From a virus (taxonomy: Duplodnaviria > Heunggongvirae > Uroviricota > Caudoviricetes): DNA of 60,110 nucleotides. The notes beneath the pieces were generated by a model, which made no database searches, was not told the DNA's origin, and saw only the letters and a list, made by a program, of their open reading frames with translations. Where the stretch lies: IMG/VR virus record IMGVR_UViG_2541047874_000004. One strand, written 5' to 3'. Positions 10,441 to 40,575 of the stretch are shown one piece after another. The translations under genes and the position numbers were made by a program. The stretch's first letter is position 1, and each line of letters opens with the position of its first letter.

Positions 10441-12005
10441 AGGCTATTGTTAACACCAAGCTGTAATGTCCCCTTTGAACCATTCTAAAATGTCCCCAGA
10501 CAATTCTCTGGGGGATTTTTCATGATCAAAGAGACTGTTACGATGAGTCATAAGGAACTCCACCGACTTCAGATTATTCAGGAACAAGCTGCGGCACGCA
10601 TTGGCATTTCTATTCGGCAGGTTAAACGTCTGGTGCAACGGTATAGAAATGAAGGGCCTTCTGGTCTGGTTTCCCACCGACGTGGAAAGCGTCCTAATAA
10701 TTCCTTTTCTACTGAATTCAGAGCAACAGTAATTTCACTCCTCAAAGGCCGTTACGCTGATTTTGGACCTACGTTTGCGTGCGAAAAATTGCGCGAGATA
10801 CACGGTTTATCTTTATCCGTTGAAACTCTCAGAAAGTGGATGATAGAAGAGGGGTTATGGCGTGAACGCCGTCGTAAAATTGCCCGTATATATCAACGCC
10901 GCATGCGACGACCATCTTACGGTGAACTGATCCAGATTGATGGCTCACCTCATGACTGGTTTGAAAATCGAGGCCCCAGATGTACACTGATCGTTTTCAT
11001 TGATGATGCCACCAGTGCGTTGATGGCGTTGCGTTTTGTGCCTGCTGAAACAACCCGGGCTTACATGGAAACCCTCCGGGGTTACCTTAATGATCATGGC
11101 GTACCGCTCGCTCTCTACTCTGATAGACACAGTATATTCAGGGTAAATAACCCAGAGCGGGAAGGTGAGCTGACCCAGTTCACTCGTGCGATAAAGACAC
11201 TGGGCATCGAGCCAATCCATGCCAACAGCCCGCAGGCAAAAGGGCGGGTAGAGCGCGCCAATCAGACACTACAGGACAGGCTGGTCAAAGAAATGCGGCT
11301 TCAGAATATCAGTGATATTGAAACAGCAAATGCATGGTTGCCGACCTTTATTGAAGCCTATAACAACCGGTTCGCTACGTCGCCTCGTACTACTGATAAT
11401 GCTCATCTTGATGTGCACCATTCTGAAGAGGAACTGGGTTATATCTTCAGCCTACAGGCGAAGCGCGTTCTGTCTAAAAATCTCACTTTCCAGTACAAAA
11501 GCAGTGCGTTTCAGGTACGCAGTGAGGGCCGGGGATATCGACTTAGGCATTCGGTTGTTACTGTATGCGAGAACTTTGACGGTGAAATTAACGTTCTGTA
11601 TGACGGGAAAGCGCTGGGCTGGGAAAAGTATGTTGATGGCCCGGAGCCTATACCACTGGATGATGAAAAGAGTGTCCATGAACGAGTGGATAATGCCCGT
11701 ATTGATTTACGCTCAAAATACTATGTTAAACCTAAAGCTGACCATCCCTGGCTTACGCGCCGAACGCAAAGTCATCAGCAAGTTAAGCCCCCGAAGTTAC
11801 CTAAAAAGAAGCCTGATCCCGATAAAAAAGATTGAAACCAAGATCGATTCGGTTGAGTGCATATCCATTCATAGGGTAGATTCTTAAGTCGCGTTTCTGG
11901 TGTTCATTTTCGGGTGGTTTGTTACTTGTTTTACCGGGGATATGCCAGAAACGCGCTGAGTCAGTCTGGGCGGTGCGCGTAATGAGGCGTTATGGTAAAT
12001 AGCCT
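10441..12005. mobile_element. Putative IS element carrying a DDE transposase; boundaries approximate
   Basis: Transposase ORF flanked by imperfect terminal matches (AGGCTATT at 10441 and its inverse near 12005); interrupts the Qin-like gene order between the replication region and flxA. The boundaries were not verified. Confidence 0.4.
10522..11835 (+). CDS. DDE transposase (integrase-core/rve type, ISNCY/IS481-like)
   Basis: 437-aa ORF with N-terminal HTH and an rve-like core (IQIDGSPHDWF...LIVFIDDATS...YSDRHSIF...GRVERANQTLQDRL). Confidence 0.7.
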   Translation: MIKETVTMSHKELHRLQIIQEQAAARIGISIRQVKRLVQRYRNEGPSGLVSHRRGKRPNNSFSTEFRATVISLLKGRYADFGPTFACEKLREIHGLSLSVETLRKWMIEEGLWRERRRKIARIYQRRMRRPSYGELIQIDGSPHDWFENRGPRCTLIVFIDDATSALMALRFVPAETTRAYMETLRGYLNDHGVPLALYSDRHSIFRVNNPEREGELTQFTRAIKTLGIEPIHANSPQAKGRVERANQTLQDRLVKEMRLQNISDIETANAWLPTFIEAYNNRFATSPRTTDNAHLDVHHSEEELGYIFSLQAKRVLSKNLTFQYKSSAFQVRSEGRGYRLRHSVVTVCENFDGEINVLYDGKALGWEKYVDGPEPIPLDDEKSVHERVDNARIDLRSKYYVKPKADHPWLTRRTQSHQQVKPPKLPKKKPDPDKKD

Positions 12006-22419: not shown

Positions 22420-22640
22420 TTACGGGTCCTTTCCGGTGATCCGACAGGTTACGGGGCGGCGACCTCGCGGGTTTTCGCTATTTATGAAAATTTTCCGGTT
22501 TAAGGCATTTCCGTTCTTCTTCGTCGTAACTTAATGTTTTTATTTAAAATACCCCCTGAAAAGAAAGGAAACGACAGGTGCTGAAAACGAGCTTTTGGGC
22601 CTCTGTCGTTTCCTTTCTCTGTTTTTGTCCGTGGAATGAA
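22420..22640. promoter_or_regulatory. Helper prophage cos region (cosQ-cosN-cosB) with the lambda cohesive-end sequence
   Basis: ACGGGTCCTTTCCGGTGATCCGACAGGTTACG-GGGCGGCGACCT-CGCGGGTTTTCGCTATTTATGAAAATTTTCCGG matches recalled lambda cos; the 12-nt cohesive end lies at about 22454..22465, just upstream of the Nu1 gene. Confidence 0.8.
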
Positions 22641-28189: not shown

Positions 28190-28198
28190 GGGATGTTT

Positions 28199-28531
28199 AT
28201 GACGAGCAAAGAAACCTTTACCCATTACCAGCCGCTGGGCAACAGTGACCCGGCTCATACCGCAACCGCGCCCGGCGGATTGAGTGCGAAAGCGCCTGCA
28301 ATGACCCCGCTGATGCTGGACACCTCCACCCGTAAGCTGGTTGCGTGGGATGGCACCACCGACGGTGCTGCCGTTGGCATTCTTGCGGTTGCTGCTGACC
28401 AGACCAGCACCACGCTGACGTTCTACAAGTCCGGCACGTTCCGTTATGAGGATGTGCTCTGGCCGGAGGCTGCCAGCGATGAGACGAAAAAACGGACCGC
28501 GTTTGCCGGAACGGCAATCAGCATCGTTTAA
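28199..28531 (+). CDS. D: Head decoration protein D
   Basis: 110 aa [43 protein letters not shown]..., matches recalled lambda D. Confidence 0.9.
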
Positions 28532-28586: not shown

Positions 28587-28832
28587 ATGTCGATGTACAC
28601 AACCGCCCAGCTGCTGGCGGCAAATGAGCAGAAATTTAAGTTTGATCCGCTGTTTCTGCGTCTCTTTTTCCGTGAGAGCTATCCCTTCACCACGGAGAAA
28701 GTCTATCTCTCACAAATTCCGGGACTGGTAAACATGGCGCTGTACGTTTCGCCGATTGTTTCCGGTGAGGTTATCCGTTCCCGTGGCGGCTCCACCTCTG
28801 AATTTACGCCGGGATATGTCAAGCCGAAGCAC
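28587..28832 (+). pseudogene. E: Major capsid protein E, 5' fragment (first 82 codons) interrupted by the satellite insertion
   Basis: MSMYTTAQLLAANEQKFKFDPLFLRLFFRESYPFTTEKVYLSQIPGLVNMALYVSPIVSGEVIRSRGGSTSEFTPGYVKPKH matches lambda E up to KPKH, then diverges (LAWLSEAFV, stop at 28862). Confidence 0.9.
28822..28831. repeat. Left copy of the 10-bp direct repeat AGCCGAAGCA (putative attL core of the inserted satellite)
   Basis: Identical 10-mer at the other junction (39785..39794), both in the E reading frame. Confidence 0.7.
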
Positions 28833-28994
28833 TTAGCATGGCTTTCTGAGGCTTTCGTGTAGTTGCTGGTTTTTACACTTAATCTTTTGATAATAAAGAA
28901 TAAGTTTATCTGGCGCTTTCACTGAATTTTCCTCGTTATCTGTGTGTTGCAATCATCTCTGTATTGCAGCTTGTATTGCTTTTTGGGGCTAAAA

Positions 28995-30230
28995 ATGGCT
29001 GGCGAGAACAAACTGAGCGACAAAGCGCTTAAAGGATATCTGGGGAAACCCAGAGAAAAGCAGATCACCATTGCTGATGGAAAGGGGCTTTCTATTCGTG
29101 TGAGTACTAAAGGGGCTGTGAGCTTTGTTTTCTTCTACAGGTTAGCAGGTGGCCGGGCTGCTCCGGTCTGGCTAACGTTGGGTAAATATCCTGATATGTC
29201 ACTCAAACAGGCAAGGGAAAAGCGCGACGAGTGCCGTGGTTGGTTGGCTGACAAACGTGATCCGCGTATCCAGATTAAGATTCAGGCTGAAGAACGCTTA
29301 AAGCCGGTCACAGTGGAGGATGCACTAAATTACTGGTATGAAAATTACTGTAAGGTGCGTCGTAAAACTCATGCTGTAACGCTTGGCAGATTTCGAAAGC
29401 ATATCTTTCCCTATATCGGTCATTTGCCCGTAAATGACACTCACCTATATGAATGGCTGGACTGTTTTGACCGAATTAAACGTAATGCACCAGTTATGGC
29501 GGCGTATGTTTTTTCTGACACTAAATTAGCTCTTCGTTTTTGTCGGGTACGCCAGTACGCGACGTGTGATGCTTTAAAGGATTTGCGCATGAGTGATGTG
29601 GGGCAGATTGCAGGTAAGCGAGATCGGGTTCTGGATGAAGCCGAACTCGGCCAGCTCTGGAAGGCAATTTTTGTCGAGCCTGATTTAAAACTAATGTCTG
29701 AATACACGCGAAAAATGTTTGTGCTTTGTACAGTATTTGGATGTCGAATGAGTGAAGCCCGATTATCAGAATGGAGCGAATGGGATCTCGAAAGTTGGGT
29801 TTGGACTGTACCAAAAGATCACTCAAAAACTGGTGTTGAAATCGTCAGACCAGTACCTGAAATTCTACGACAGTGGGTAACGGATGTTCACGAAGAGACA
29901 AAACATACTGGTTATGTGCTGGGAAGTCTGCGAATTAGAGAAAGCGTAAGCAAGATTGGGGGGAAAATCGGTAAACGTTTGGGCCATGAAAAACAATGGT
30001 CACTACACGACCTTAGAAGAACGCTATCTACTCATCTAAGTGATCTCGGTGTTGAATTTTATGTAGTAGAACAACTGTTAGGCCATGCGCTACCTGGCGT
30101 GGCAGGTGTTTACAATCGGAGTAAGTTTATGGCTAAAAAACTGGATGCTCTGGAACTCTGGACTACATATCTCAATAGCATCGCAGGTGCTGATTCAAAA
30201 GTGACAATCCTCAAACAAAAGGCTGGTTAA
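28995..30230 (+). CDS. Satellite tyrosine integrase (P4-type)
   Basis: About 411 aa from MAGENKLSDKALKGY...; arm-binding-type N-terminus and C-terminal catalytic region (HDLRRTLSTHL...LLGHA...VYNRSKF). Confidence 0.85.
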   Translation: MAGENKLSDKALKGYLGKPREKQITIADGKGLSIRVSTKGAVSFVFFYRLAGGRAAPVWLTLGKYPDMSLKQAREKRDECRGWLADKRDPRIQIKIQAEERLKPVTVEDALNYWYENYCKVRRKTHAVTLGRFRKHIFPYIGHLPVNDTHLYEWLDCFDRIKRNAPVMAAYVFSDTKLALRFCRVRQYATCDALKDLRMSDVGQIAGKRDRVLDEAELGQLWKAIFVEPDLKLMSEYTRKMFVLCTVFGCRMSEARLSEWSEWDLESWVWTVPKDHSKTGVEIVRPVPEILRQWVTDVHEETKHTGYVLGSLRIRESVSKIGGKIGKRLGHEKQWSLHDLRRTLSTHLSDLGVEFYVVEQLLGHALPGVAGVYNRSKFMAKKLDALELWTTYLNSIAGADSKVTILKQKAG

Positions 30231-30231
30231 C

Positions 30232-30459
30232 ATGAAAAAAATGGCAATTGTTGATAAAAAGGGTCTGGAGTACATTCCTAACATTGATCGTATGATCCGT
30301 GAGAAAGAATGTCGGGAGCTAACCACTCTTGCGAACAGCACACGCTGGAAGCTGGAGAAGGAAGGAAAATTTCCTAAGCGGATCAAGATTGGCGCTACTG
30401 CGGTAGCTTACCGTCTCTCCGAAGTTCAGGCATGGATTAGGGGGGAATGGCGGACATAA
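30232..30459 (+). CDS. alpA: AlpA-family transcriptional regulator
   Basis: 75 aa with the AlpA-type HTH (ECRELTTLANSTRWKLEKEGKFPKRIKIGATAVAYRLSEVQAWI) directly after int, as in PICI/P4-like satellites. Confidence 0.75.
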   Translation: MKKMAIVDKKGLEYIPNIDRMIREKECRELTTLANSTRWKLEKEGKFPKRIKIGATAVAYRLSEVQAWIRGEWRT

Positions 30460-30495
30460 ATGTTGTAGTAAATTGTTATATAAAAGGGTGTAAGC

Positions 30496-31371
30496 ATGGC
30501 TACTCGAAAAAAAAATAGCGTAGAAATGAAAACTGTTTGTGAACTAATCATATCAAGAGATGATATGAAAGATAAAATTCAAGACAGAATTCAAAAAGGA
30601 TTATTACTCCTACAGAAAAGCATAAATAACAATAGTGACTTGGAGCTGTTTAATGCTGATTACAGGAAATGGAGTGATTTTAATGCTGAGCTACTGAAGC
30701 GTAGTTTCACAAATGATGATTTCAAAGAAGAATATGAAGGTGGGGCATTTGGTGTTATTTCATTGTACGAGACTTCCTTGGGAGAAAAAATCAGTGAGGC
30801 TACGCGTAAACTCCAGAGTAAGATAAGAAAACTAGAGTCGATTATGGAGCGACTGGAGTTAATTCCTATATCTTCCAAAGTTGTTGAAGAAAATATTGAA
30901 GTACCTCAGAGTTCAGCGGTAAAAACCAAAAAGGTATTCATTGTTCATGGAAGAGATGAAATATCAAAAACCAACTTAGAAGTGTTTTTAAGAGAAATTG
31001 GCTTAGAACCTATTGTTCTCCATAGGCAAGCTGATGTAGGTCAGACAGTGATTGAGAAATTTGAAGCAAATAGTGATGTTGGTTTCGCATTCATTCTTCT
31101 CACACCTGATGAGATCGCTTATTTATTGCCGCAAGACTCTTTACCTGATAATGAAAGAGAAAAGGAGTTACGTGCACGACCAAATGTAATGTTTGAATTT
31201 GGTTATTTCGTAGGGAAATTAGGTCGTTCTAAGGTTTGTTGTCTATACACAGGTGATGTAGTGATTCCAAGTGATTTGAATGGTCTTATTTATAAAAAAT
31301 TCAATTCTTCTATTGAAGAAGTAGCATATAGCATTATTAAAGACTTGCGAGCTACTGGTTACGCAGTTTAG
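30496..31371 (+). CDS. TIR-like nucleotide-binding domain protein (Cap12/PycTIR-type C-terminal domain) with coiled-coil N-terminal domain; candidate anti-phage effector
   Basis: C-terminal KKVFIVHGRDEISKTNLEVFLREIGLEPIVLHRQADVGQTVIEKFEANSDVGFAFILLTPDE...RARPNVMFEFGYFVGKLGRSKVCCLYTGDVVIPSDLNGLIY fits the recalled TIR-like family signature; no cyclase or partner gene adjacent. Confidence 0.65.
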   Translation: MATRKKNSVEMKTVCELIISRDDMKDKIQDRIQKGLLLLQKSINNNSDLELFNADYRKWSDFNAELLKRSFTNDDFKEEYEGGAFGVISLYETSLGEKISEATRKLQSKIRKLESIMERLELIPISSKVVEENIEVPQSSAVKTKKVFIVHGRDEISKTNLEVFLREIGLEPIVLHRQADVGQTVIEKFEANSDVGFAFILLTPDEIAYLLPQDSLPDNEREKELRARPNVMFEFGYFVGKLGRSKVCCLYTGDVVIPSDLNGLIYKKFNSSIEEVAYSIIKDLRATGYAV

Positions 31372-31400
31372 TAAATTCTTTGAACTAAAAATCTGCATAG

Positions 31401-31434
31401 ATATAGAGCCATTCGAGATAAATGGCTCTATATG
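31401..31434. terminator. Bidirectional terminator-like hairpin between convergent satellite genes
   Basis: ATATAGAGCCATT-CGAGATAA-ATGGCTCTATAT inverted repeat. Confidence 0.5.
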
Positions 31435-31446
31435 AAATATTATCTG

Positions 31447-31626
31447 TTAAATTTTGACTTCATATCCGCGTTGCTGTAGTTCTTTGCGAATAATCCTTTT
31501 AATCCAGGCTGCTAAAGATTCGTCTCCATCTACTTGCTGTGCTTGCTCCATCAACTCCCTCAACTCAGGATCTAACCGAAACTGGAACGGAGGATTACCA
31601 CGTCTTTGATTTTTGTGTGTTGACAC
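31447..31626 (-). CDS. Small ribbon-helix-helix-like regulator (tentative; GTG start)
   Basis: Hand translation of the minus strand: VSTHKNQRRGNPPFQFRLDPELRELMEQAQQVDGDESLAAWIKRIIRKELQQRGYEVKI; RHH-like pattern (FQFRLDPELRE...SLAAWIKRII); divergent from the operator-like inverted repeat. Confidence 0.35.
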   Translation of the reverse strand: MSTHKNQRRGNPPFQFRLDPELRELMEQAQQVDGDESLAAWIKRIIRKELQQRGYEVKI

Positions 31627-31680
31627 GTCAATTACACCCGATGTAATGTGTTAATGTGTGATGACACATTACATACGTGT
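31621..31680. promoter_or_regulatory. Operator-like inverted repeats in the satellite divergent promoter region
   Basis: ATGTAATGTG ... CACATTACAT inverted repeat between the tentative RHH gene and the rightward replication operon. Confidence 0.4.
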
Positions 31681-31756
31681 TTAGGAAAATGCAACGCCTC
31701 GACGTGCGGGAACACCATCGAGGCGTCTAACCAACCCGTTAAATGAGGTAACGATT

Positions 31757-32122
31757 ATGGCTGGAACACAGCATACCCAAACTCACCCTAAATTTATATA
31801 CACCTTTCTGGCACTACACCACGACCGCATGGCAGATGGAGCAACTACGGTACATGTAGCCGCTGACACGCTGGTTGATGCCCGCAAGATGGTTAAGGAG
31901 ATGGGCTATACTGCGGCTTTCTGGAAAGGGCGTGAAGAAAACACGCTGTTTATTCAGAAATGCGAAAACAATTTCATCTGGCGTTTTATCGCCCTGAGCA
32001 CCGCACAACCACGCGTAATACACATCGAGGCCGCCAGCGAACAGGAAGCCCGGCTGCAATCCCCAACTGGCTACGTGATGATATTCGCCGCCCGTATTCG
32101 TCAGGAGGTGTGCCATGAATGA
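31757..32122 (+). CDS. Hypothetical satellite protein
   Basis: 121-aa ORF with an upstream GAGGT ribosome-binding site; first gene of the rightward operon leading to the primase. Confidence 0.5.
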   Translation: MAGTQHTQTHPKFIYTFLALHHDRMADGATTVHVAADTLVDARKMVKEMGYTAAFWKGREENTLFIQKCENNFIWRFIALSTAQPRVIHIEAASEQEARLQSPTGYVMIFAARIRQEVCHE

Positions 32123-32339
32123 TCTTTATTTTAAAGTGCTGACACATGCTGAAAACGCGCTCGTTTGTGGCAAAAATATGCGAGAAATCTTATCAACCTG
32201 GCTTGATGGGACAACAAATGCGGAACACGATGAACGGGATGCTAATTTAGCTGGAGCGTTAATTACGTTACTTGATCCTGTCATCAAAGAGCTGGATGAA
32301 GCTATAAAAATACACGACCAGAGCTATACCGGAGAATAA
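32115..32339 (+). CDS. Hypothetical satellite protein
   Basis: 74-aa ORF, translationally coupled (ATGAATGA overlap). Confidence 0.45.
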   Translation: MNDLYFKVLTHAENALVCGKNMREILSTWLDGTTNAEHDERDANLAGALITLLDPVIKELDEAIKIHDQSYTGE

Positions 32340-32342
32340 AAA

Positions 32343-32630
32343 ATGAAAAATAAATTTTCTGGCTTTATTGCCAGCGGTCAAACTCATTCAAAAATCAGCC
32401 TTGGGGATATTTTCAAAGACAGCTATGGCTATCGGGTAAAGATTATTTCGGTTGATGATCGTCGTGTCTCTTATTTGCGTGATGGTTATGATTTTGAATG
32501 TGTTATGCCGCGTCAGCAGTTCGAAAGAGATTTCATTCTGGTAAAAAATTGCAAGACAGATAATCAGAGGCGTGCCGCAGGCTATATCCGTAAAATTCGG
32601 GCAATGTTAGTTGCCGGAGGTAACAAATGA
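32343..32630 (+). CDS. Hypothetical satellite protein
   Basis: 95-aa ORF, overlaps the primase start (ATGA). Confidence 0.45.
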   Translation: MKNKFSGFIASGQTHSKISLGDIFKDSYGYRVKIISVDDRRVSYLRDGYDFECVMPRQQFERDFILVKNCKTDNQRRAAGYIRKIRAMLVAGGNK

Positions 32631-34447
32631 AACGTGCTCCGAACTTAAAATACCAACCGCGCGACAAAATGACGGAAGTCATCATTTTTGCTGGCAGTGA
32701 TGCCTGGAGCCATGCAAAAGAATGGAATGAATGGGCAGGTAAGCATATTGCAGCAGATGATACACCACCAGTCATTCTGGGTACGGAACAACTGGAAAAC
32801 CTGGATGATATGCAAATTATCGATGAAGGCCGTCATTATGTGCGTGTTTATCGTGCCGGAAAGATTGCAGAGAAAAGTCTGACGAAGGTTGCGACATTAC
32901 TTGCTATTGCAGGCGTAAAGGAAGCACGTTGTTACCGTAGCTTTGTTGATCGAGAGCCTGAAGACTGGACTCCGCGCCTTGTCGGCCTAAAAGCTGAAGC
33001 GGAGCATGGGGAAAGTCTGGTGATTGAACTGCCAGTGAAGAAGGCAGAGCGCAAAAATGACGAGCGTGCTTCATCTTTGGCGTTGAATCAGATGGGGGCC
33101 AGCCAGCGCGGTGAAGTTCTCCTTGCACATTACGGCGGCGAACTGGCAATCAATGCCGACTCTGACACCGTTCATCATTACAACGGCGTTGTATGGGAGC
33201 CGGTTCAGGATAAAGAGTTACAGCGTGCTATGGCGCAGATTTTCATTGATGCGGAGATCAGCTATTCGCAGAACGCTATTAAATCGGCGGTAGATACCAT
33301 GAAGTTAAGTTTGCCTGTAATGGGGAATACAGCCCGTAACCTGATTGGATTCAGTAACGGGGTATTTGATACCAGAACTGGTAATTTTCGGGAGCATAAC
33401 AAAAACGACTGGTTGTTAATTGCCAGTGAATTACCTTTCAGTCCACCAGCAGAGGGGGAAACGCTGGCAACACATGCGCCGAATTTCTGGAAGTGGTTGC
33501 GCCGTTCGGTGGCTGAGAATGACCGCAAGGCAGATCGCGTACTGGCGGCATTATTCATGGTGCTGGCGAACCGGTACGACTGGCAGTTATTCATTGAGGT
33601 AACAGGGCCGGGGGGAAGTGGTAAAAGTGTGATGGCGGAGATTTGCACCATGCTGGCGGGTAAGGCTAATACAGTATCAGCAAGCATGAAGGCGCTGGAA
33701 GATGCAAGGGAACGTGCGTTAGTGGTTGGCTTTTCGCTGATTATCATGCCGGATATGACCCGCTACGCTGGTGATGGGGCAGGGATTAAGGCCATTACAG
33801 GCGGTGACAAGGTGGCAATTGACCCGAAACACAAAGCCCCCTATTCAACGCGTATTCCGGCAGTAGTGCTGGCGGTTAACAATAACGCCATGTCATTCAG
33901 TGACCGCAGCGGGGGGATCTCACGTCGTCGGGTGATATTCAATTTTTCGGAAGTTGTACCGGAGAACGAACGCGATTCGATGCTGGCGGAAAAAATAGAA
34001 GGTGAGCTGGCGGTAGTGATTCGCCATCTGCTTACACGGTTTGCTGATCAGGACGAAGCCAGACGCCTGTTATATGAGCAGCAGAAATCTGAAGAAGCAC
34101 TGGCGATAAAGCGAGAGGGGGATTCGCTGGTGGACTTCTGCGGCTATCTCATGGCATCGGTAATGTGTGATGGCCTGTTAGTGGGTAATGCTGAAATTGT
34201 GCCATTCAGCCCACGCAGGTATCTCTATCATGCCTATCTGGCTTATATGAGGGCACATGGGTTTGGTAAACCTGTAACACTGACGCGCTTCGGTAAAGAT
34301 ATGCCGGGGGCAATGGCGGAATATGGCAGGGAGTATATGAAACGGAAAACGAAGCACGGTTTGCGTTCAAACGTGACACTGACGGAGGAATCAGAAGACT
34401 GGATGCCATCATGTGTATCGGTCACTAATGACGATAGCAAAAATTAA
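32627..34447 (+). CDS. Primase/replicative helicase (P4 alpha-like, D5_N plus P-loop NTPase)
   Basis: 606 aa; Walker A GPGGSGKS, Walker B-like LIIMPDM; cognate TGTTCACC iterons immediately downstream. Confidence 0.8.
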   Translation: MKRAPNLKYQPRDKMTEVIIFAGSDAWSHAKEWNEWAGKHIAADDTPPVILGTEQLENLDDMQIIDEGRHYVRVYRAGKIAEKSLTKVATLLAIAGVKEARCYRSFVDREPEDWTPRLVGLKAEAEHGESLVIELPVKKAERKNDERASSLALNQMGASQRGEVLLAHYGGELAINADSDTVHHYNGVVWEPVQDKELQRAMAQIFIDAEISYSQNAIKSAVDTMKLSLPVMGNTARNLIGFSNGVFDTRTGNFREHNKNDWLLIASELPFSPPAEGETLATHAPNFWKWLRRSVAENDRKADRVLAALFMVLANRYDWQLFIEVTGPGGSGKSVMAEICTMLAGKANTVSASMKALEDARERALVVGFSLIIMPDMTRYAGDGAGIKAITGGDKVAIDPKHKAPYSTRIPAVVLAVNNNAMSFSDRSGGISRRRVIFNFSEVVPENERDSMLAEKIEGELAVVIRHLLTRFADQDEARRLLYEQQKSEEALAIKREGDSLVDFCGYLMASVMCDGLLVGNAEIVPFSPRRYLYHAYLAYMRAHGFGKPVTLTRFGKDMPGAMAEYGREYMKRKTKHGLRSNVTLTEESEDWMPSCVSVTNDDSKN

Positions 34448-34454
34448 ACTTATG

Positions 34455-34695
34455 GAATAACTGTTCACCACTGTTCACCCTGTCATAAATATCTTTTATA
34501 TCAGTATATTATAGGGTGAACAGTTATTTATGAACTGTTCACCAAACTATTCACTGTTCACCTTTTTGATTGTTTATTGAGCTTCAAGGGTGAACAGTGG
34601 TGAACAGTTGGTGAATAGTTTTTGTGAAACTGTTCACCCATTAACATTATGAATTAAAAGAGAAAATATCAAAAGGTGAACAGGTGAAGGGTTAA
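34455..34695. repeat. Satellite replication origin: about 9-10 copies of the octamer TGTTCACC / GGTGAACA in both orientations
   Basis: Seen directly (for example CTGTTCACCACTGTTCACC, GGTGAACAGTGGTGAACAG); P4 ori/crr are built from TGTTCACC iterons bound by alpha (recalled). Confidence 0.75.
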
Positions 34696-34734
34696 AACGC
34701 AAAAATTTTAATTTACTGCTGTGAGATAAAGCCT

Positions 34735-34980
34735 ATGACAGCGAAGCACACAAAAAAATCACAATCGCACGCCCTTGATTTGACGGAACACTGGTTAAGG
34801 GTGTCGATAAAAATCATCGACCGCAACGCCGGGGAAGGATACGCGAAAGCACATCCCGAACTGATTAGCGCATTCATGACAACGGCGGCTGCAAACTTTG
34901 CCACTCTGACCGAACGGGAGATTGCTGAAGCGGAGGAAGTGACAACAATCAATATTAAGTCCGGAGAGCAGGCAGCATGA
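34735..34980 (+). CDS. Hypothetical satellite protein
   Basis: 81-aa ORF; ATGA overlap with ssb. Confidence 0.45.
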   Translation: MTAKHTKKSQSHALDLTEHWLRVSIKIIDRNAGEGYAKAHPELISAFMTTAAANFATLTEREIAEAEEVTTINIKSGEQAA

Positions 34981-35426
34981 CGGCGCAAATATCAGTTTAC
35001 GGGCGGTTGGTGGACGACCCGCAGACAAAACAGACCAGCAAGGGCACCCCCATGACGCTGGCGCGTATGGCGGTATCACTGCCCTGCAGTCAGTCGGATG
35101 ACGGTCAGGCGACGATGTGGTTATCTGTCCTGGCGTTTGGCAGACAAGCCGACGCGCTGGCAAAGCATCACAAAGGCGAACTCCTGAGCGTGGCGGGTAA
35201 TATGCAGGTGAGCCAGTGGACTGGACAGAACGGTGAAACGCGGCAGGGCTGGCAGGTTATCGCAGACAGCGTAATCAGTGCGCGAACGGTGCGACCGGGC
35301 GGCAAAAAAGGTCAACAGGGTCAGGCTACTGACGCACTGAACAGAGCAAAACAACAGGCAGATCAGCAAGGAAGCCATCCACCAGTGGGAGATAATGAAC
35401 AATGGGGAGATGATATTCCGTTTTAA
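34977..35426 (+). CDS. ssb: Single-stranded DNA-binding protein
   Basis: 149 aa; OB-fold-like N-terminus, Gly/Gln-rich linker and C-terminal acidic tail ending DDIPF. Confidence 0.8.
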   Translation: MTAQISVYGRLVDDPQTKQTSKGTPMTLARMAVSLPCSQSDDGQATMWLSVLAFGRQADALAKHHKGELLSVAGNMQVSQWTGQNGETRQGWQVIADSVISARTVRPGGKKGQQGQATDALNRAKQQADQQGSHPPVGDNEQWGDDIPF

Positions 35427-35643
35427 ATATTGCCAATAAAAAAGGCCGGAAAAAAATAAATTTTCCGGCATGCTACATAAATCCCGACCAAAGGGAGTGA
35501 AGATATTAACACTAATTATCCGCGCTGAAGTTGTTATCCCAAAACTTTATACAACATTGCACTCGGTTGCATGTATTCGCATGACAAATATCGGTGATAG
35601 CATATATCCACAATTATTTTTAATGAATGCAAAGAGGATGCGT

Positions 35644-36684
35644 ATGGTTGATTTATATTCGCCTACCCAGCTTGTACAGGTGGTTAATGCTGTAGATGTA
35701 CAAAAACAACTAAATGCGTTGTTTACCAGTTTGTTTTTTACTCGCTCGGTAATGTTTGAATCGCGCGATATTATTCTTGATACAATCGACGATCCAAATA
35801 TCCCAATTGCAGCGTTTTGTTCTCCTATGGTGGGTAGTAAAGTTTCACGTGACGAAGGGTACGAATCAAAAACAATTCGTCCAGGCTATATGAAGCCGAA
35901 AAGCAGCATTGATCCAAATAAGTTAGCTGTGCGCCCTGCTGGTGTATCACCTGAGCAATACAATGCTTTTGGAGCGCGTAATATTAAAGTTAAACAGGCG
36001 ATTGTAAATCAGGCTAAAGCTATTCGTACACGTATTGAATGGCTTGCCGTTCAGGCAATCACAACGGGGAAAAATATCATTGAGGGCGATGGTATTGAAC
36101 GTTATGAGCTGGACTGGAATATTAAACCACAAAATATCATCACTCAGTCTGGCGGTGCTGAGTGGTCAGGTAAGGATAAAGAAACTTTTGATCCAAATGA
36201 TGATATTGAGAGCTACGCAGAATTTAGTGAGGGCGTCACTAATATCATCATTATGGGCGGTAATGTATGGAAGAAATACCGTTCATTCAGAGCGATAAAA
36301 GAGGCTTTGGATACCCGTCGTGGTTCTAATTCCGAACTGGAAACGGCTCTTAAAGACCTTGGTGATTCGGTGAGTTTTAAAGGGTATATGGGCGATGTTG
36401 CGATTGTTGTATACAGCGGGCGTTATACCGACGAGGACGGAACTGAAAAACATTTCCTTGATCCTGATTTGATGGTGCTTGGCAATACGGCTCTTCAGGG
36501 GATTGTCGCCTATGGCGGTATTCAGGATCCGGAGCTAATCCGAATGGGGCTGACTAAAGCCGAACTTGCACCGAAAAACTATATTGTGCCTGGTGATCCG
36601 GCTATTGAATATGTGCAGACACATTCAGCACCACAGCCAATACCGGCCCGCATCAATCGTTTTGTTACCGTTCGCATTGGCTAA
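35644..36684 (+). CDS. Satellite-encoded major capsid protein homolog (lambda E-like)
   Basis: Aligns along its length with the helper E protein (for example ITQSGGAEWSGKDKETFDPNDDIESYA vs ITQSGGTQWSQRDKSTYDPTDDIEAYA; LDTRRGSNSELETALKDLGDSVSFKGYMGDVAIVVYSG vs LDTRRGSHSELETAVKDLGKAVSYKGMYGDVAIVVYSG). Start chosen at the ATG after the AAGAGGA ribosome-binding site; the ORF track extends to 35470. Confidence 0.8.
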   Translation: MVDLYSPTQLVQVVNAVDVQKQLNALFTSLFFTRSVMFESRDIILDTIDDPNIPIAAFCSPMVGSKVSRDEGYESKTIRPGYMKPKSSIDPNKLAVRPAGVSPEQYNAFGARNIKVKQAIVNQAKAIRTRIEWLAVQAITTGKNIIEGDGIERYELDWNIKPQNIITQSGGAEWSGKDKETFDPNDDIESYAEFSEGVTNIIIMGGNVWKKYRSFRAIKEALDTRRGSNSELETALKDLGDSVSFKGYMGDVAIVVYSGRYTDEDGTEKHFLDPDLMVLGNTALQGIVAYGGIQDPELIRMGLTKAELAPKNYIVPGDPAIEYVQTHSAPQPIPARINRFVTVRIG

Positions 36685-36693
36685 GGGGGAGCA

Positions 36694-37035
36694 ATGGCTA
36701 CTCATTACACTGAACTCATGGCTGGCACTGAAGCACTGGTGACTACGCTGGGGATATTTTCAGCTAATAAAGGGGTAATTCCTGCATTTACGCCACTGAT
36801 GCAGGAAGATGCAACAGGTGCACTGGTGGTATGGGATGGTTCGAGCGTAGGTAAAGCGGTTTATGTTTCCGCTGTACAAATCGACACCGCGAAAAAAACA
36901 CAGGCTCAGGTCTATAAGACAGGTGTCTTAAATGTTGATGCTCTGAACTGGCCTGAGTCTGTAAAAGAACTGTCAGTAAAGATTGCAGCGTTTGTTGGCT
37001 CAGGTATTTCTGTTCAGCCGCTGGCTCGTGTGTAA
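36694..37035 (+). CDS. Putative head decoration protein (lambda D-like)
   Basis: 113 aa; shares the TPLM...LVVWDG...KTG...WPE...GISV pattern with gpD and is adjacent to the E-like gene; the homology is weak. Confidence 0.5.
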   Translation: MATHYTELMAGTEALVTTLGIFSANKGVIPAFTPLMQEDATGALVVWDGSSVGKAVYVSAVQIDTAKKTQAQVYKTGVLNVDALNWPESVKELSVKIAAFVGSGISVQPLARV

Positions 37036-37046
37036 AGGGGGATACA

Positions 37047-37430
37047 ATGCAGAATGATTACAATGACCTTAAGCCAATTGCCGAAATGATGTACCCGAAT
37101 CCAGCTGTAGAGGAATTAAAAGCTATCGCTGACAAAATGTGTTTAAGCGAGCGCCTTGTTGATATGAATCAGGTGATGGAAATTACAACCCTGAGTCGGC
37201 GTACACTGCTAAACCTTGAGGCTAGTGGAGAGTTCCCGGAGCGTGTGCAGGTTACGGAAGGGCGTAAGGCCTGGTATTTAAGTGAAGTGATCGACTGGAT
37301 AAATAATATTCCTCGCGCTTCTGAATATTGCCGCGTACCTGTCCCAAAAAAGCCAGATGCGGCGCTATGCCTCAAGATTGAGCGTGTACGCCGCAATGCA
37401 CGGGATGGTCGCTATAAGCTGATTGGTTGA
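37047..37430 (+). CDS. AlpA-like HTH-domain protein
   Basis: 127 aa with MNQVMEITTLSRRTLLNLEASGEFPERVQVTEGRKAWYLSEVIDWINN; ribosome-binding site AGGGGGA upstream. Confidence 0.55.
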   Translation: MQNDYNDLKPIAEMMYPNPAVEELKAIADKMCLSERLVDMNQVMEITTLSRRTLLNLEASGEFPERVQVTEGRKAWYLSEVIDWINNIPRASEYCRVPVPKKPDAALCLKIERVRRNARDGRYKLIG

Positions 37431-37456
37431 TGAAATTAGGGCCCGCTCTGGCTGGC

Positions 37457-37530
37457 GGGTCCTTTCCGGCGATCCGGCAGGCTACGGGGCGGAAGGCGCG
37501 CGGGTTTTCGCTATTTATGAGCATTTTAAG
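37457..37530. promoter_or_regulatory. Satellite cos-like site with an altered cohesive-end sequence
   Basis: CGGGTCCTTTCCGGCGATCCGGCAGGCTACG-GGGCGGAAGGCG-CGCGGGTTTTCGCTATTTATGAGCATTTT; flanks are conserved with the helper cos, 6 substitutions fall inside the 12-nt cohesive-end segment. Confidence 0.7.
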
Positions 37531-37646
37531 GGGACTGGTGGTGGTTTTGTTGTTCGCTATATCTGTATGAATAATAAGAGAAAAATACAATCAATACACC
37601 AACCTGAAACAGTAATTAAGTTGTGGTATCAATGAAATTACACCTG

Positions 37647-38174
37647 ATGAACAAAAAAAACATGGCAAAAAGTTGCCGTGTAAGCGCCACTGCGTTCGAT
37701 AAGTGGGGAGTGATTCCCGTCGAGCGTAAGGGCCGTGAGGCGTTCTATGATGTTGCCAGTGTAATAGATAATCGGGTTAACAATGCAATCAGCCAGATTA
37801 CAAACGAAACGGGCGATATTGATGACGATGAACTTTTACGCGTCAGGATCAGATTACTGACAGCACAGGCAGAGGCGCAGGAGCTTAAAAACGAGCGCGA
37901 ACGCGGCGACGTTATTGATACAGAGTTTTGTATGTATGTTCTTTCCAAACTGGCGAGTCAGATTTCATCTATCATGGACAGCCTGCCGCTTACCATGCAA
38001 AGGCGCTTCCCACAGATGACTCCGGCTATGCTGGATGGACTTAAAAAGGAAGTGGCTAAAGCCTGTAATGCCAGTGCCGGCGTTGCTGACAACCTCCCAC
38101 AGATACTGGCTGATTATCTGATGGAAAGTACAGGAAACGTACCGGATAAGTTGCAGCTGAATAAGGATAAGTAA
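37647..38174 (+). CDS. Terminase small subunit-like protein (Nu1 C-terminal homology, divergent N-terminal DNA-binding domain)
   Basis: C-terminal half aligns with helper Nu1 (TAQAEAQELKNERERGDVIDTEFCMYVLSKLASQISSIMDSLPLTMQRRFPQ vs TRAQATAQELKNAKESAEVVETAFCTFVLSRIAREISSILDGIPLSVQRRFPE); the N-terminus differs. Start uncertain (ATG at 37632, 37647 or 37662). Confidence 0.7.
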   Translation: MNKKNMAKSCRVSATAFDKWGVIPVERKGREAFYDVASVIDNRVNNAISQITNETGDIDDDELLRVRIRLLTAQAEAQELKNERERGDVIDTEFCMYVLSKLASQISSIMDSLPLTMQRRFPQMTPAMLDGLKKEVAKACNASAGVADNLPQILADYLMESTGNVPDKLQLNKDK

Positions 38175-38185
38175 CGTAGTACGCT

Positions 38186-38461
38186 ATGACTGAATCCGAA
38201 CTACTGAAAGTAATCTGCCATGCTGGTGGAGTCAGCCACCAGCATGACGAACAGACCACGCAGCCGGGCAGTGTCACCGCTGAAAATTACGCTCGTGTGG
38301 TTGCTGAGGTTATGTGGCGTGACGGTATAGAACTGAACGGACAGGATTGCTTAGTCATCCGCACCAAAGTGGTGGCTATACTGGCAGCTAGGCGGAGGCA
38401 GGGACAACGCCAGAACGTTGCATCGTACCAGTGGAAGAAGCCTGACAGACTGCGGCGATAA
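38186..38461 (+). CDS. Hypothetical satellite protein
   Basis: 91-aa ORF after the TerS-like gene. Confidence 0.4.
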   Translation: MTESELLKVICHAGGVSHQHDEQTTQPGSVTAENYARVVAEVMWRDGIELNGQDCLVIRTKVVAILAARRRQGQRQNVASYQWKKPDRLRR

Positions 38462-38863
38462 CTCTTTGATTTTCTCGACGGCCCCAAAATGGGCCTTACC
38501 ATAGCCAGCTAATAAATGAGCAAGCCTCAAAAGTGAGGTTTGTGGCCGTTTGGCCTATTCATATGCTAACTCGTTGATATTCCTGACGACGCAAATTTAC
38601 GCCTTGTGGCTGGTAGTCGAATTGCAAATTTGCAACTCAACTATGAAACTACAGGTAGTTTGGGTAGTAAAAGCAACACACTGATTTTGGGGCTTCTTCG
38701 CGATACCTAATATTATGGTATCGGTGGAAGAGATATCGTTTCTCATAGGTTAGCACCGAGGGCGGAGTTCCGCCCTCATCGAAAAATTGCTTACGAGTCG
38801 TCAAAATAAATTAATCGACTGAGTATAATGATTAACTAATTGCTCGTGTTACTTCATTATACG

Positions 38864-39625
38864 TTATTTCCCATCTTTAAGGTTTAACCAAGTGTTAATT
38901 AAAAAAAGAGCCATTGAGCCTGATAAATTTACTGCAAGTTCGGCATGCCTTGGGGATGGCTTAATTGATGAGCTGTTCGTTCCATGTGCATCACCGAGTT
39001 TATTACGAAGAGTACCTAACCCATTTACAACTGCAGAACAACCGCCGAGAATTTGTTTGAAGATATTTTCAGTATGTTGGTCGGCAGATAGGTTAAGTTC
39101 TTTTGAAAGAGTTTTATAAAGCTCTGACATTTCAATATTTTTATTATTATACTGAATGCCCATATCATCAAGAATGTGTTTGCAAACTGTTTCAAGAAGT
39201 GTTCTTGCGGAGGTTATCGCACCATCCGGATCTGTATGGCGCCGTTCAAGTGCTTTTATCCAAACGGCGTGGACTCCATCCTCGTTAAACTTTCTTAATA
39301 CATCAGATATGTCTTCATCCGCTGGAGCTTTATTTTTCCCTTCTAGATAATCCAGCATCGGCTGAAATGCCTTATAAATCAAATCTCTCCGGGGGGCATA
39401 CTTTTCAGTCTTTTTTATAAATCCCCAAAATTCTTTTAGTGAGCGATTAGTTCTCACAAACTCTGGTAATAGCTGATGTAAAGGAGGATTTTGTAAGAAA
39501 TATGTTCTTAGAAGCAAATAATCATTATTAGCTTCATCCTGGGCTCCTGTAGCTCTTGCAATTAGTATGTTTTGAAGCGCTACTGCGCGCTCTAGGTCAT
39601 TTTGAAGGGTATCTATAATATTCAT
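38864..39625 (-). CDS. Abortive-infection-like protein with Abi_C-type C-terminal domain; candidate defense cargo
   Basis: 253 aa; C-terminal GLGTLRNKLGDAHGT...PSPRHAELAVNLSGSMALFLINTWL fits the recalled Abi C-terminus signature; opposite strand to the rest of the element, at its right end. Confidence 0.55.
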   Translation of the reverse strand: MNIIDTLQNDLERAVALQNILIARATGAQDEANNDYLLLRTYFLQNPPLHQLLPEFVRTNRSLKEFWGFIKKTEKYAPRRDLIYKAFQPMLDYLEGKNKAPADEDISDVLRKFNEDGVHAVWIKALERRHTDPDGAITSARTLLETVCKHILDDMGIQYNNKNIEMSELYKTLSKELNLSADQHTENIFKQILGGCSAVVNGLGTLRNKLGDAHGTNSSSIKPSPRHAELAVNLSGSMALFLINTWLNLKDGK

Positions 39626-39784
39626 AACAAATCTTTATTCACTTCATTTGTGGGTTGATAATTGAATGGTTTGTACATTGATTTCTGTGTATTGCAGTGT
39701 GTATTGCAACATAGCCATTCAGGTAGAGATTATGCTCTATTTTTCCTCTTATATCATTCACATACTTACACCATTGACTCATGT

Positions 39785-39794
39785 AGCCGAAGCA
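39785..39794. repeat. Right copy of the 10-bp direct repeat AGCCGAAGCA (putative attR core)
   Basis: Identical to 28822..28831; E resumes in frame immediately here. Confidence 0.7.
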
Positions 39795-40575
39795 TGAAGT
39801 GAATCCGCAGATGACCCTGCGTCGCCTGCCGGATGAAGATCCGCAGAATCTGGCGGACCCGGCTTACCGCCGCCGTCGCATCATCATGCAGAACATGCGT
39901 GACGAAGAGCTGGCCATTGCTCAGGTCGAAGAGATGCAGGCCGTTTCTGCCGTGCTTAAGGGCAAATACACCATGACCGGTGAAGCCTTCGATCCGGTTG
40001 AGGTGGATATGGGCCGCAGTGAGGAGAATAACATCACGCAGTCCGGCGGCACGCAGTGGAGCCAGCGTGACAAGTCCACGTATGACCCGACCGACGATAT
40101 CGAAGCCTACGCGCTGAACGCCAGCGGTGTGGTGAATATCATCGTGTTCGATCCGAAAGGCTGGGCGCTGTTCCGTTCCTTCAAGGCCGTCAAGGATAAG
40201 CTGGATACCCGTCGCGGCTCTCATTCCGAGCTGGAGACAGCGGTGAAAGACCTGGGCAAAGCGGTGTCCTATAAGGGAATGTATGGCGATGTGGCCATCG
40301 TCGTGTATTCCGGACAGTACGTGGAAAACGGCGTCAAAAAGAACTTCCTGCCGGACAACACGATGGTGCTGGGGAACACTCAGGCACGCGGTCTGCGCAC
40401 CTATGGCTGCATTCAGGATGCGGACGCACAGCGCGAAGGCATTAACGCCTCTGCCCGTTACCCGAAAAACTGGGTGACCACCGGCGATCCGGCGCGTGAG
40501 TTCACTATGATTCAGTCAGCACCGCTGATGCTGCTGGCTGACCCTGATGAGTTCGTGTCCGTACAACTGGCGTAA
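39787..40575 (+). pseudogene. E: Major capsid protein E, 3' fragment (resumes at ...PKHEVNPQMTLRR)
   Basis: Matches recalled lambda E from EVNPQMTLRRLPDEDPQNLADPAYRRRR to the C-terminus DPDEFVSVQLA; no ATG or ribosome-binding site of its own (the ORF track begins at GTG 39799). Confidence 0.9.

Follow-up and report, generated by a model that had tools for sequence, protein, structure and literature searches.

A putative satellite-specific pair of capsid and decoration genes in an island that interrupts the major capsid gene of its lambdoid helper

Described satellites and the island in the window

Homologues of phage capsid and decoration proteins were described in E. coli PICIs in 2018 (PMC6092414), and the helper-embedded PICIs (HE-PICIs) of site group E:Phage_cap_E_80, which include Eco567.11capE, have been catalogued in 201 instances (Tommasini, Mageeney and Williams, NAR Genom Bioinform 2023, PMC10111431). 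The residence of a satellite within its own helper's capsid gene is striking biology that is already in print, and the element type described here, known from these publications, is not new. What is new is the satellite-specific lineage of an E→D gene pair, the purifying selection acting on it and its occurrence regardless of the integration site.

The window is the whole stretch of 60,110 nucleotides that was analysed (IMG/VR record IMGVR_UViG_2541047874_000004, Caudoviricetes). It contains an island (Table 1) with a GC content of 0.39-0.51, against about 0.58 outside, which separates two fragments of capsid gene E in a lambda-like prophage, the helper. Once joined, these fragments encode an intact 341-aa protein of lambda type, with 337/341 residues identical to lambda gpE and 4/341 differing; the disruption of helper E reported by the first-pass annotation is therefore real. 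The island lies at the site of group E:Phage_cap_E_80, in the same codon of the lambda-E cognate as Eco567.11capE and its relatives (PMC10111431), and its att core corresponds to codons 79-82 of helper E. Like these elements, it is about 11 kb long, shows a near-identical junction with the 10-bp identity block of the catalogued sequence at both island ends, carries a capsid gene of its own that belongs to the family of the target gene, and has doubled TGTATTGC motifs at the published spacing from the attP centre, the HE-PICI motif tgTGTATTGCantgTGTATTGCa being located 81 ± 2 bp upstream and 132 ± 2 bp downstream (PMC10111431). Its four zones follow in order (Integration with int/AlpA, Bro/dynamic, Replication with primase/SSB, and Late), from an inward-facing int-alpA through primase and SSB to the capsid gene. 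The core AGCCGAAGCA, which is shared with several catalogued members and given as 'agccgaagca' for E_Phage_cap_E_80 HE-PICIs in the supplement of PMC10111431, differs from AACCCAAGCA in the original 11capE. In contrast to 11capE, moreover, the variable zone holds a TIR (PDC-S35) gene. The terminal genes of the helper encode a resolvase and an MFS transporter. The TIR gene, accompanied in the dynamic zone by an Arc-like gene, is swapped for other genes in islands that are otherwise 99% identical. A Pfam search of the island found no Bro-N domain in this zone, and an Rfam scan (E ≤ 0.1) found no C4/isrK-type immunity RNA in the island.

At least 80% of the island is present in about 40 complete E. 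coli genomes, always flanked by two capsid-gene fragments, and none of the complete RefSeq genomes has a whole-length match. The nucleotide identity of 97-99% to same-site islands in complete genomes implies that the integrase is a member of the HE-PICI clade. The island is thus almost certainly an HE-PICI of the '11capE' type, site group E:Phage_cap_E_80, inserted by its own tyrosine integrase. That the element is a satellite, as initially annotated, is supported by its int-alpA, D5-type primase, SSB, own cos and TerS-like gene, together with the lack of portal, protease, tail and large terminase genes.

Table 1. Features of the island and of the flanking helper capsid region (positions in the window).
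Feature	Position	Strand	Description
Helper head decoration gene D	28193..28531	+	Intact; Pfam HDPD 4e-22
Helper E 5' fragment	28587..28831	+	Codons 1-82; cut off by island
attL	28822..28831		10-bp identity block AGCCGAAGCA
Satellite island	28832..39794	+	10,963 bp; same orientation as helper late operon
Doubled TGTATTGC motif, downstream of attP centre	28956..28979	+	Repeat family D6; starts about 131 bp past core centre (reconstructed attP)
Tyrosine integrase	28995..30230	+	Pfam Arm-DNA-bind_3 3.7e-19, Phage_integrase 1e-16
AlpA (excisionase/activator)	30232..30459	+	Pfam Phage_AlpA 6e-15
TIR-domain cargo, candidate defence gene PDC-S35	30496..31371	+	Variable zone; Pfam CAP12-PCTIR_TIR 1.2e-33; PADLOC PDC-S35 7e-67
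DUF4222 gene	32343-32630		Precedes primase/helicase
D5-type primase/helicase	32627..34447	+	Replication module; Pfam D5_N, DUF5906, Pox_D5
Satellite SSB	34977..35426	+	Pfam SSB 2.6e-16
satE	35644..36684	+	Lambda-E-type HK97-fold major capsid protein, 346 aa
satD	36694..37035	+	gpD/SHP-type head decoration protein, 113 aa; directly downstream of satE
Second AlpA-like regulator	37047..37430	+	Pfam Phage_AlpA 7.6e-9; PHROG 2790 1e-49
Satellite cos (cosQ/cosN-like)	37458..37531	+	62/74 bases identical to helper cos 22425-22498
Nu1-type small terminase homologue	37632..38174	+	Full-length; Pfam Phage_Nu1 1.1e-24; PHROG 57 3e-53
AbiJ-like abortive-infection cargo	38864..39625	-	Pfam Abi_C 1.3e-23; PADLOC AbiJ 2e-21
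Doubled TGTATTGC motif, upstream of attP centre	39684..39707	+	Ends about 82 bp before core centre (reconstructed attP)
attR	39785..39794		Second copy of AGCCGAAGCA
Helper E 3' fragment	39795..40575	+	Codons 82-341

The satellite EcCICFT073 (Fillol-Salom et al. 2018 ISME J; 2019 Mol Cell) also uses lambdoid helpers and has a comparable layout, int-alpA being followed by pri, the capsid gene c1499, the decoration gene c1500 and cos, but it is chromosomal whereas the island studied here is embedded. Its 144-aa RppA retargets helper TerS; our island, by contrast, encodes a 180-aa Nu1 homologue of full length in which no similarity to RppC is detectable. This protein (180-183 aa) is 37% identical to helper Nu1 over residues 3-180 and, although an RppC structure has been solved, phmmer matched it to no PDB chain at E ≤ 0.01. 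Rpp proteins are about 144-153 aa long, are related to RppA/B/C and combine a wHTH domain with a C-terminal coiled-coil dimer; an Rpp identity of this gene was ruled out by that alignment, the Pfam Phage_Nu1 match and the lack of detectable RppC similarity. The satellite cos carries the 12-nt cohesive-end core GGGCGGAAGGCG, against GGGCGGCGACCT in helper cos, and the similarity between the two disappears in the cosB region.

An own major capsid protein and small terminase are also features of the cf-PICIs (EcCIEDL933; Alqurainy et al., bioRxiv 10.1101/2022.09.08.507074). These encode in addition portal, protease, head-tail connectors, HNH and large terminase and steal tails only, whereas the ORFs of our island include no portal, maturation protease, head-tail connectors or large terminase/HNH, which places it outside the cf-PICIs. 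SaPIbov5 Ccm is, like SatE, a satellite-encoded homologue of the helper HK97-fold coat protein, and it lowers helper yield. Ccm redirects head size; in contrast, there is no evidence of size redirection here, and the DNA packaged by the E. coli relative EcCICFT073 is phage-sized (PMC6092414).

Identity of satE and satD and the att-like string

The satE gene, whose ATG start is located 5 nt 3' of AGAGGA, encodes a full-length member of the gpE family with the HK97 fold. The protein matches Pfam Phage_cap_E (PF03864) at 2.8e-41 over profile positions 4-327 of 329 (142 bits for a curated cut-off of 22.9) and PHROG 29 'major head protein' at 1e-88. PDB sequence matches were obtained with 3BQW (E. 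coli CFT073 'putative capsid protein of prophage', 1e-120) and lambda gpE (7VI9, 3e-76), and the AlphaFold model (pLDDT 79, pTM 0.81) superposes with a TM of 0.95 on 3BQW (53% identity) and of 0.91 on the lambda gpE crystal structure 7SJ5. We presume that 3BQW is the EcCICFT073 capsid protein c1499. End-to-end alignment with the reconstituted helper E gave 144/349 identical positions (41%), 59% positives and E=2e-84. Alignment and model thus agree with the first-pass annotation that the product is E-like over its full length, but the 'high similarity' to helper E that it mentioned was overstated at 41% identity, and satE is a paralogous lineage rather than an allele of helper E.

The adjacent 113-aa protein had been described as D-like, rightly so: it matches Pfam HDPD (PF02924) at 4.4e-15, with 56.3 bits for a curated cut-off of 29.1, and is 38% identical to helper D. 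Its top PDB matches were phage 21 SHP (1TD0, 6e-16) and lambda gpD (1e-11), and this similarity to solved gpD/SHP trimers places it in the gpD/SHP decoration family. Gene order is D→E in the helper and E→D in the satellite.

An att-core-like string within satE had also been noted, with the suggestion that the att site derives from capsid-gene homology. The string GAAGCCGAAAAGCA is indeed present, once, at 35892-35905, and at codons homologous to the helper att core (GYVKPKH in the helper, GYMKPKS in the satellite), but only 7/10 core bases match in frame, and a 14-mer chance test allowing 2 mismatches gave 2 matches for 0.75 expected, so that the string in itself is unremarkable. Its position within satE is explained by codon homology with helper E. 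The proposed origin of att is not supported: the island ends, where attP lies, are over 3 kb away from satE, and the likeness reflects conserved K-P-K codons. Tommasini et al. compared these segments of the satellite and target capsid genes and found them too different for self-integration (PMC10111431). Moreover, integrases of this clade use 14 target sites spread over 9 late genes (PMC10111431), some of which have no copy in the satellite (e.g. portal in L004).

Lineage of the E→D pair and selection

Across all PICI loci sampled, the satE-satD pair is 52-99% identical, whereas the best identity to any phage among 50,697 phage genomes is 42%. Bacterial genomes contain a graded series of satE relatives from 99% down to 52% identity; all series members checked are located in a PICI with the order E→D, and in each of the satellite loci examined satD directly follows satE. 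Below the identity gap, the single relative inspected (L013, 41%) belongs to a true prophage with the order D→E. A long branch of the neighbour-joining tree parts the satellite group from the phage group, and satE residues 41-85, 129-157 and 306-346 are conserved among members of the satellite clade but not across the two clades. Clade-specific indels occupy only 4 columns, each of them located in the N-arm. Clades were defined by the tree because a simple identity threshold misassigned one hybrid helper-E/satE gene (P0043, L015). This hybrid was considered as natural evidence of compatibility and dropped: its crossover lies in just 13-14 identical bases on a single metagenome scaffold, the junction occurs in 0 of 5,426 complete E. 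coli genomes, and it is possibly an assembly chimera.

The pair was also found in PICIs that leave E uninterrupted, among them chromosomal PICIs at fis (L002, L014), chromosomal PICIs of E. coli (L006/L007, L008) and the embedded PICI L004, which splits the portal gene. These comparisons indicate that satE and satD, rather than being recent copies of helper genes, are a long-resident, satellite-specific pair of Gram-negative PICIs, whatever the integration site.

The dN/dS ratios, from which the most distant pairs were left out as their synonymous sites are saturated, were 0.02-0.15 for satE and 0.10-0.16 for satD; in the least saturated pair, dS and dN were 1.09 and 0.10 for satE, and 0.24 and 0.028 for satD. 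Both genes retain an intact reading frame in genera ranging from Escherichia to Serratia, Edwardsiella and Lelliottia. The substitution pattern thus shows that the genes are functional and under purifying selection; their presence also in PICIs with E intact argues against a specific replacement for a broken E. Capture of late genes by PICIs has been proposed by Tommasini et al. (PMC10111431) and knockouts in EcCICFT073 had no phenotype, which might suggest that the pair is a decaying relic captured by chance from a helper and devoid of function. Such a relic is effectively refuted, and we give it hardly any probability, in view of dN/dS values of about 0.02-0.16 across lineages with saturated synonymous change, the intact frames, and a distinct clade with a gene order inverted relative to phages. 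Taken together, lineage and selection argue against a simple 'backup of broken gene' or 'recent capture' and point to a structural or conditional role.

Possible role of satE and satD in the satellite life cycle

As shown by qPCR and deep sequencing, the 11capE satellite excises precisely and late after helper induction, with restoration of E, and has left 42-98% of composites by 2-3 h; plaques or particles were not recovered from the composite by Tommasini et al. (PMC10111431). By extension of the cycle published for 11capE, SOS induction of the helper would lead to excision and replication of the whole composite, and helper late transcription through Nu1-A-W-B-C-D-E' would enter the co-oriented satellite, so that satE and satD may be expressed by read-through. 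A promoter/terminator consensus scan gave counts at or below shuffle expectation and was uninformative on satE transcription. Precise excision of the satellite would then restore E, and the Nu1-like TerS together with the variant cos would steer helper terminase and heads to satellite concatemers.

Within such a cycle, we tentatively propose that SatE and SatD are assembly-competent shell and cement proteins, made late, that enter phage-sized heads together with helper E and D, or as a supplement to them, on the portal and protease/scaffold of the helper, assuming that they are compatible with these helper parts. They would provide a shell supply partly independent of the helper, in an accessory and conditional rather than essential manner. 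The combination of HE-PICI identity, a satellite-lineage gene pair, this life cycle and an accessory structural role is in our opinion the best explanation of the locus and a reasonably probable one. The coat genes are strongly conserved, and yet the sole knockouts gave no phenotype: in EcCICFT073, the nearest relative studied by experiment, whose capsid and decoration genes are 53-56% identical to their satE/satD homologues, deletion of c1499 or c1500 left both transfer and lambda interference unchanged (PMC6092414). At least when the helper is intact, a structural contribution can therefore be dispensed with.

The first-pass annotation had proposed instead that the satellite E and D proteins replace the disrupted helper coat, giving satellite-specific heads that use the portal, protease, scaffold and tail of the helper and might differ in size or stability. 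Indeed, satE is the sole intact major capsid gene of the composite while the satellite is integrated, both genes are co-oriented with the helper late operon and under purifying selection, and TerS and cos are likewise supplied by the satellite itself. Tommasini et al. also raised the idea of a 'backup intact copy' (PMC10111431), and Pasteurella PmCI172, a PICI with a capsid homologue, makes small heads (PMC6092414). Nevertheless, the same type of pair resides in PICIs that leave E uninterrupted, the EcCICFT073 deletion mutants transfer normally and DNA is packaged at phage size, and 42-98% of the composites would have regained E within 2-3 h if excision proceeds as in 11capE. The proposal is thus not supported and we regard it as rather unlikely; sole replacement of helper E, or redirection of head size, seems improbable.

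A further reading is that of a 'half capsid-forming' PICI, in which satE/satD, the full-length TerS and the variant cos act together: since helper E stays interrupted up to satellite excision, the shells forming earliest on the portal and scaffold of the helper would consist of satellite coat and cement proteins and would be preferentially filled with satellite concatemers. We consider this unlikely; if true, it would place the element mechanistically midway between classical PICIs and cf-PICIs, would give a reason for the embedded lifestyle and would make the ancient satellite-specific E→D lineage a dedicated satellite shell.

Alternatively, SatE and SatD might act as interference factors, poisoning or destabilising the heads of the helper by co-assembly with its E and D proteins, with an outcome like that of SaPIbov5 Ccm. 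Satellites commonly act against capsid assembly (PMC6092414, PMC6893505), the segments conserved within the satellite clade alone could mark altered interfaces, and purifying selection means that some function is retained. However, deletion of c1499 or c1500 did not relieve the lambda interference of EcCICFT073, where a dominant Rpp block could mask a second mechanism, and SatE has a full fold without truncation, close to gpE and with its few clade-specific indels confined to the N-arm. There is in our view only a small chance that the two proteins are interference factors.

Finally, a non-structural role could be considered, SatE and SatD for instance acting as decoys, or triggering or regulating a capsid-sensing immunity that may be tied to the TIR and AbiJ cargo. 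The island does encode a PDC-S35 TIR protein and an AbiJ-like protein, and its relative EcCICFT073 showed no structural phenotype. This role is nevertheless quite improbable, since the defence cargo varies across islands whereas the E-D pair is constant, and a whole HK97 fold with its cognate decoration protein is conserved, beyond the needs of a decoy.

The satellite island and its published relatives

The window contains a complete lambdoid prophage, the helper, whose major capsid gene E is split by an island of 10,963 bp with a G+C content below that of its surroundings. Disruption of helper E by the satellite, noted at the first pass, was confirmed: the two parts rejoin into a 341-aa protein with four differences from lambda gpE. 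The island is bounded at both ends by the direct 10-bp repeat AGCCGAAGCA, and all its function-assigned genes lie on the plus strand except the Arc-like and AbiJ-like genes. The island lacks genes for a portal, a protease, a large terminase or tails.

Features of the helper prophage and of the island, in window coordinates
Feature	Position	Strand	Remark
Prophage integrase	20-1315	minus	
Helper cos	~22454		followed by Nu1, A, portal, C protease, D, tail genes, resolvase
Helper E, 5' part	28587-28831		codons 1-82
Island	28832-39794		
Tyrosine integrase, AlpA		+	island genes, in order from here
TIR-domain protein	30496-31700 (stretch)	+	PADLOC candidate PDC-S35
Arc-like protein		minus	
Icd-like protein, DUF4222 protein		+	
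D5-type primase, SSB		+	
satE	35644-36684	+	E-like
satD	36694-37035	+	D-like
Second AlpA-like gene		+	
Satellite cos	37458-37531		
Nu1-type small terminase homologue	37632-38174	+	full-length
Small conserved ORF			
AbiJ-like gene	38864-39625	minus	
Helper E, remainder	39795-40575		
Host MFS transporter gene	from 58827		

Tommasini, Mageeney and Williams (2023, PMC10111431) described Eco567.11capE (11capE), an 11-kb PICI of E. coli NRG857c that sits within prophage 50icd, in capsid gene E, has an identity block of 10 bp and carries a capsid gene belonging to the family of its target; their census of helper-embedded PICIs (HE-PICIs) counted 201 further instances at the E site and 290 at 13 other late-gene sites. 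Our island is a member of their group E:Phage_cap_E_80, an assignment that rests on those defining features testable from sequence. Indeed, its att core string is one catalogued for E_Phage_cap_E_80, its left junction matches the published alignment, the four-zone HE-PICI gene order is seen, and the HE-PICI-specific doubled motif TGTATTGC-N4-TGTATTGC is present in two copies, which in the reconstructed attP lie ~82 bp upstream and ~131 bp downstream of the centre (published spacing 81+/-2 and 132+/-2 bp, PMC10111431). Moreover, at least 80% of the island is carried by ~40 complete E. coli genomes, always flanked by two fragments annotated as capsid gene. Even before that, Fillol-Salom et al. 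(2018, PMC6092414) had reported capsid and decoration homologues from an E. coli PICI, namely c1499 and c1500 in EcCICFT073. The finding stands, but as a rediscovery of a described element type. Classification as a cf-PICI was rejected, the island differing from these in the absence of portal, protease, connectors and large terminase.

The defence-type cargo consists of the TIR protein (PADLOC match 7e-67) and the AbiJ-like protein. In otherwise 99% identical islands the TIR gene is replaced by different genes (locus L001, 5698-6887), so that the stretch after alpA acts as a swap-in hotspot. A transposase gene with HTH and rve_3 domains lies at 10522-11835, within the helper early region; the helper may therefore bear an IS insertion besides the satellite.

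Coat and decoration proteins of a satellite lineage

Sequence and predicted structure identify the satE product (346 aa) as a bona fide lambda-E-type coat protein, in agreement with the first-pass annotation. It matches nearly the entire Pfam Phage_cap_E profile (2.8e-41), and its PDB sequence matches include 3BQW (1e-120) and lambda gpE (3e-76). The HK97 fold, whose absence had been named beforehand as refuting the annotation, was recovered in the AlphaFold2 model (pLDDT 79, pTM 0.81); this superposes with a TM of 0.95 on 3BQW and of 0.91 on the crystal structure of lambda gpE. The gene had also been called a highly similar, distinct allele of helper E; the full-length alignment with reconstituted helper E held (59% similarity end to end, E=2e-84), but identity is 41% and the two represent paralogous lineages rather than alleles. 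The satD product (113 aa) is likewise assigned as a gpD/SHP decoration protein, as first suggested, from a Pfam HDPD match (4.4e-15) and 38% identity to helper D, with phage 21 SHP as closest solved relative.

The Nei-Gojobori dN/dS against homologues at other loci (0.02-0.15 for satE, 0.10-0.16 for satD; in the least saturated comparison, dS 1.09 and dN 0.10, and dS 0.24 and dN 0.028, respectively) shows purifying selection on both genes. The closest match to satE in 50,697 phage genome records was lambda E (42%), and a collection of 5.8 billion proteins yielded graded relatives from 99% down to 52% identity. Every one of these with inspected context has the order E then D within a PICI. Identity to satE is 84-86% in further copies lying inside E, 84% in an "off-target" copy on a chromosome, 74% in a fis PICI of Serratia, 60% in an Edwardsiella PICI lodged in a portal gene, 56% in chromosomal PICIs of E. 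coli and 52% in a fis PICI of Lelliottia, which also has an S49 protease. The one relative checked below the identity gap (41%) belongs to a complete prophage and has D before E, as phages do, and a long branch parts the satellite and phage groups in a neighbour-joining tree. Residues 41-85, 129-157 and 306-346 of satE, with a mean identity of 0.69-0.82 within the satellite clade vs 0.32-0.43 between satellite and phage, are candidate satellite-specific interfaces. These comparisons place satE and satD in a satellite-specific lineage; the pair is no recent capture, no copy of the present helper genes and not bound to E integration.

It had also been suggested that the att site derives from capsid-gene homology, an idea that did not survive. 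At 35892-35905, GAAGCCGAAAAGCA covers the satE codons that correspond by homology to those of the helper att core (GYMKPKS in satE, GYVKPKH in the helper), but this 14-mer is statistically unremarkable, only 7 of the core's 10 bases agree in frame, and attP is built from the island ends, not from satE. Moreover, the HE-PICI integrase clade also targets late genes without a satellite homologue (PMC10111431), as in the Edwardsiella locus L004 (1-15626), a PICI inside a helper portal gene that has E and D and lacks a portal gene. Figure 1A of the same paper sets the att site beside the matching segment of the satellite capsid gene, and its authors concluded that the differences would prevent self-integration. 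Protein homology accounts for the resemblance.

Packaging and possible role of the pair

Over residues 3-180, the island Nu1 homologue and helper Nu1 share 37% identity, in an alignment that takes in the C-terminal region, which in lambda Nu1 binds gpA. Its full Nu1 length and lack of similarity to RppC led us to reject an assignment as Rpp; EcCICFT073 has a short Rpp, in contrast to the Nu1-type TerS homologue of the island, which suggests that this PICI group follows a SaPI-like "own TerS" strategy. Satellite and helper cos (22425-22498) share 62 of 74 bases, with cosQ and the cosN flanks kept and an unrelated cosB side. Since the 12-nt cohesive-end cores differ (GGGCGGAAGGCG in the satellite, GGGCGGCGACCT in the helper), their ends would not anneal together. 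The satellite Nu1 homologue might recruit the helper terminase to the satellite cos.

Upon mitomycin C, the whole 11capE composite is excised and then replicates; precise satellite excision, which restores E, comes only later, at 2 h, in 42-98% of composites, and neither plaques nor particles were recovered (PMC10111431). In our window, helper late transcription would enter the co-oriented satellite. The best-supported reading, itself weak, is that satE and satD may be shell and cement proteins competent for assembly, which would add to helper E and D, or mix with them, in heads of phage size. The proposal that satE substitutes for the broken helper E as sole coat, or redirects capsid size, is very unlikely given EcCICFT073, where deletion of either gene left transfer unchanged (3.8e3 and 8.7e3 vs 8e3 transductants/ml, Table 1) and packaged DNA was all phage-sized (PMC6092414). 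Interference by the pair is slightly less improbable, although lambda interference was also unaffected by deleting the capsid or decoration gene (PMC6092414). We consider a non-structural role highly improbable, and a functionless relic is effectively excluded. There is strong support for a function of the pair retained by selection, and the remaining interest lies in what this conserved pair of coat and decoration genes, specific to satellites, does.

Variant loci

The off-target copy (L008, 2940-13941; same gene order) occupies an intergenic chromosomal site between UPF0060 and MR_MLE genes with no prophage around, presumably by "off-target" integration. Locus L015 (ENA ERZ28600228 scaffold_2787) carries at 2801-3829 a hybrid capsid gene of 342 aa, followed by satD and an AlpA-like gene. 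Its first ~690 nt are ~100% identical to window helper E, uninterrupted, and the rest to satE, with the crossover within a 13-14-nt identity, TGGATACCCGTCG. This junction was found in no complete E. coli genome; the hybrid is therefore either an uncommon recombinant or a product of chimeric assembly. Two homologues, P0005 (463 aa) and P0084 (470 aa), are predicted single-frame fusions of capsid (PF03864) and decoration (PF02924) domains, which may have arisen by loss of the stop codon that separates E from D, or from sequencing errors. In the chromosomal Lelliottia locus (L014, 10001-12752), E and D are followed by an S49 protease/scaffold gene, an arrangement that represents a step towards capsid autonomy.
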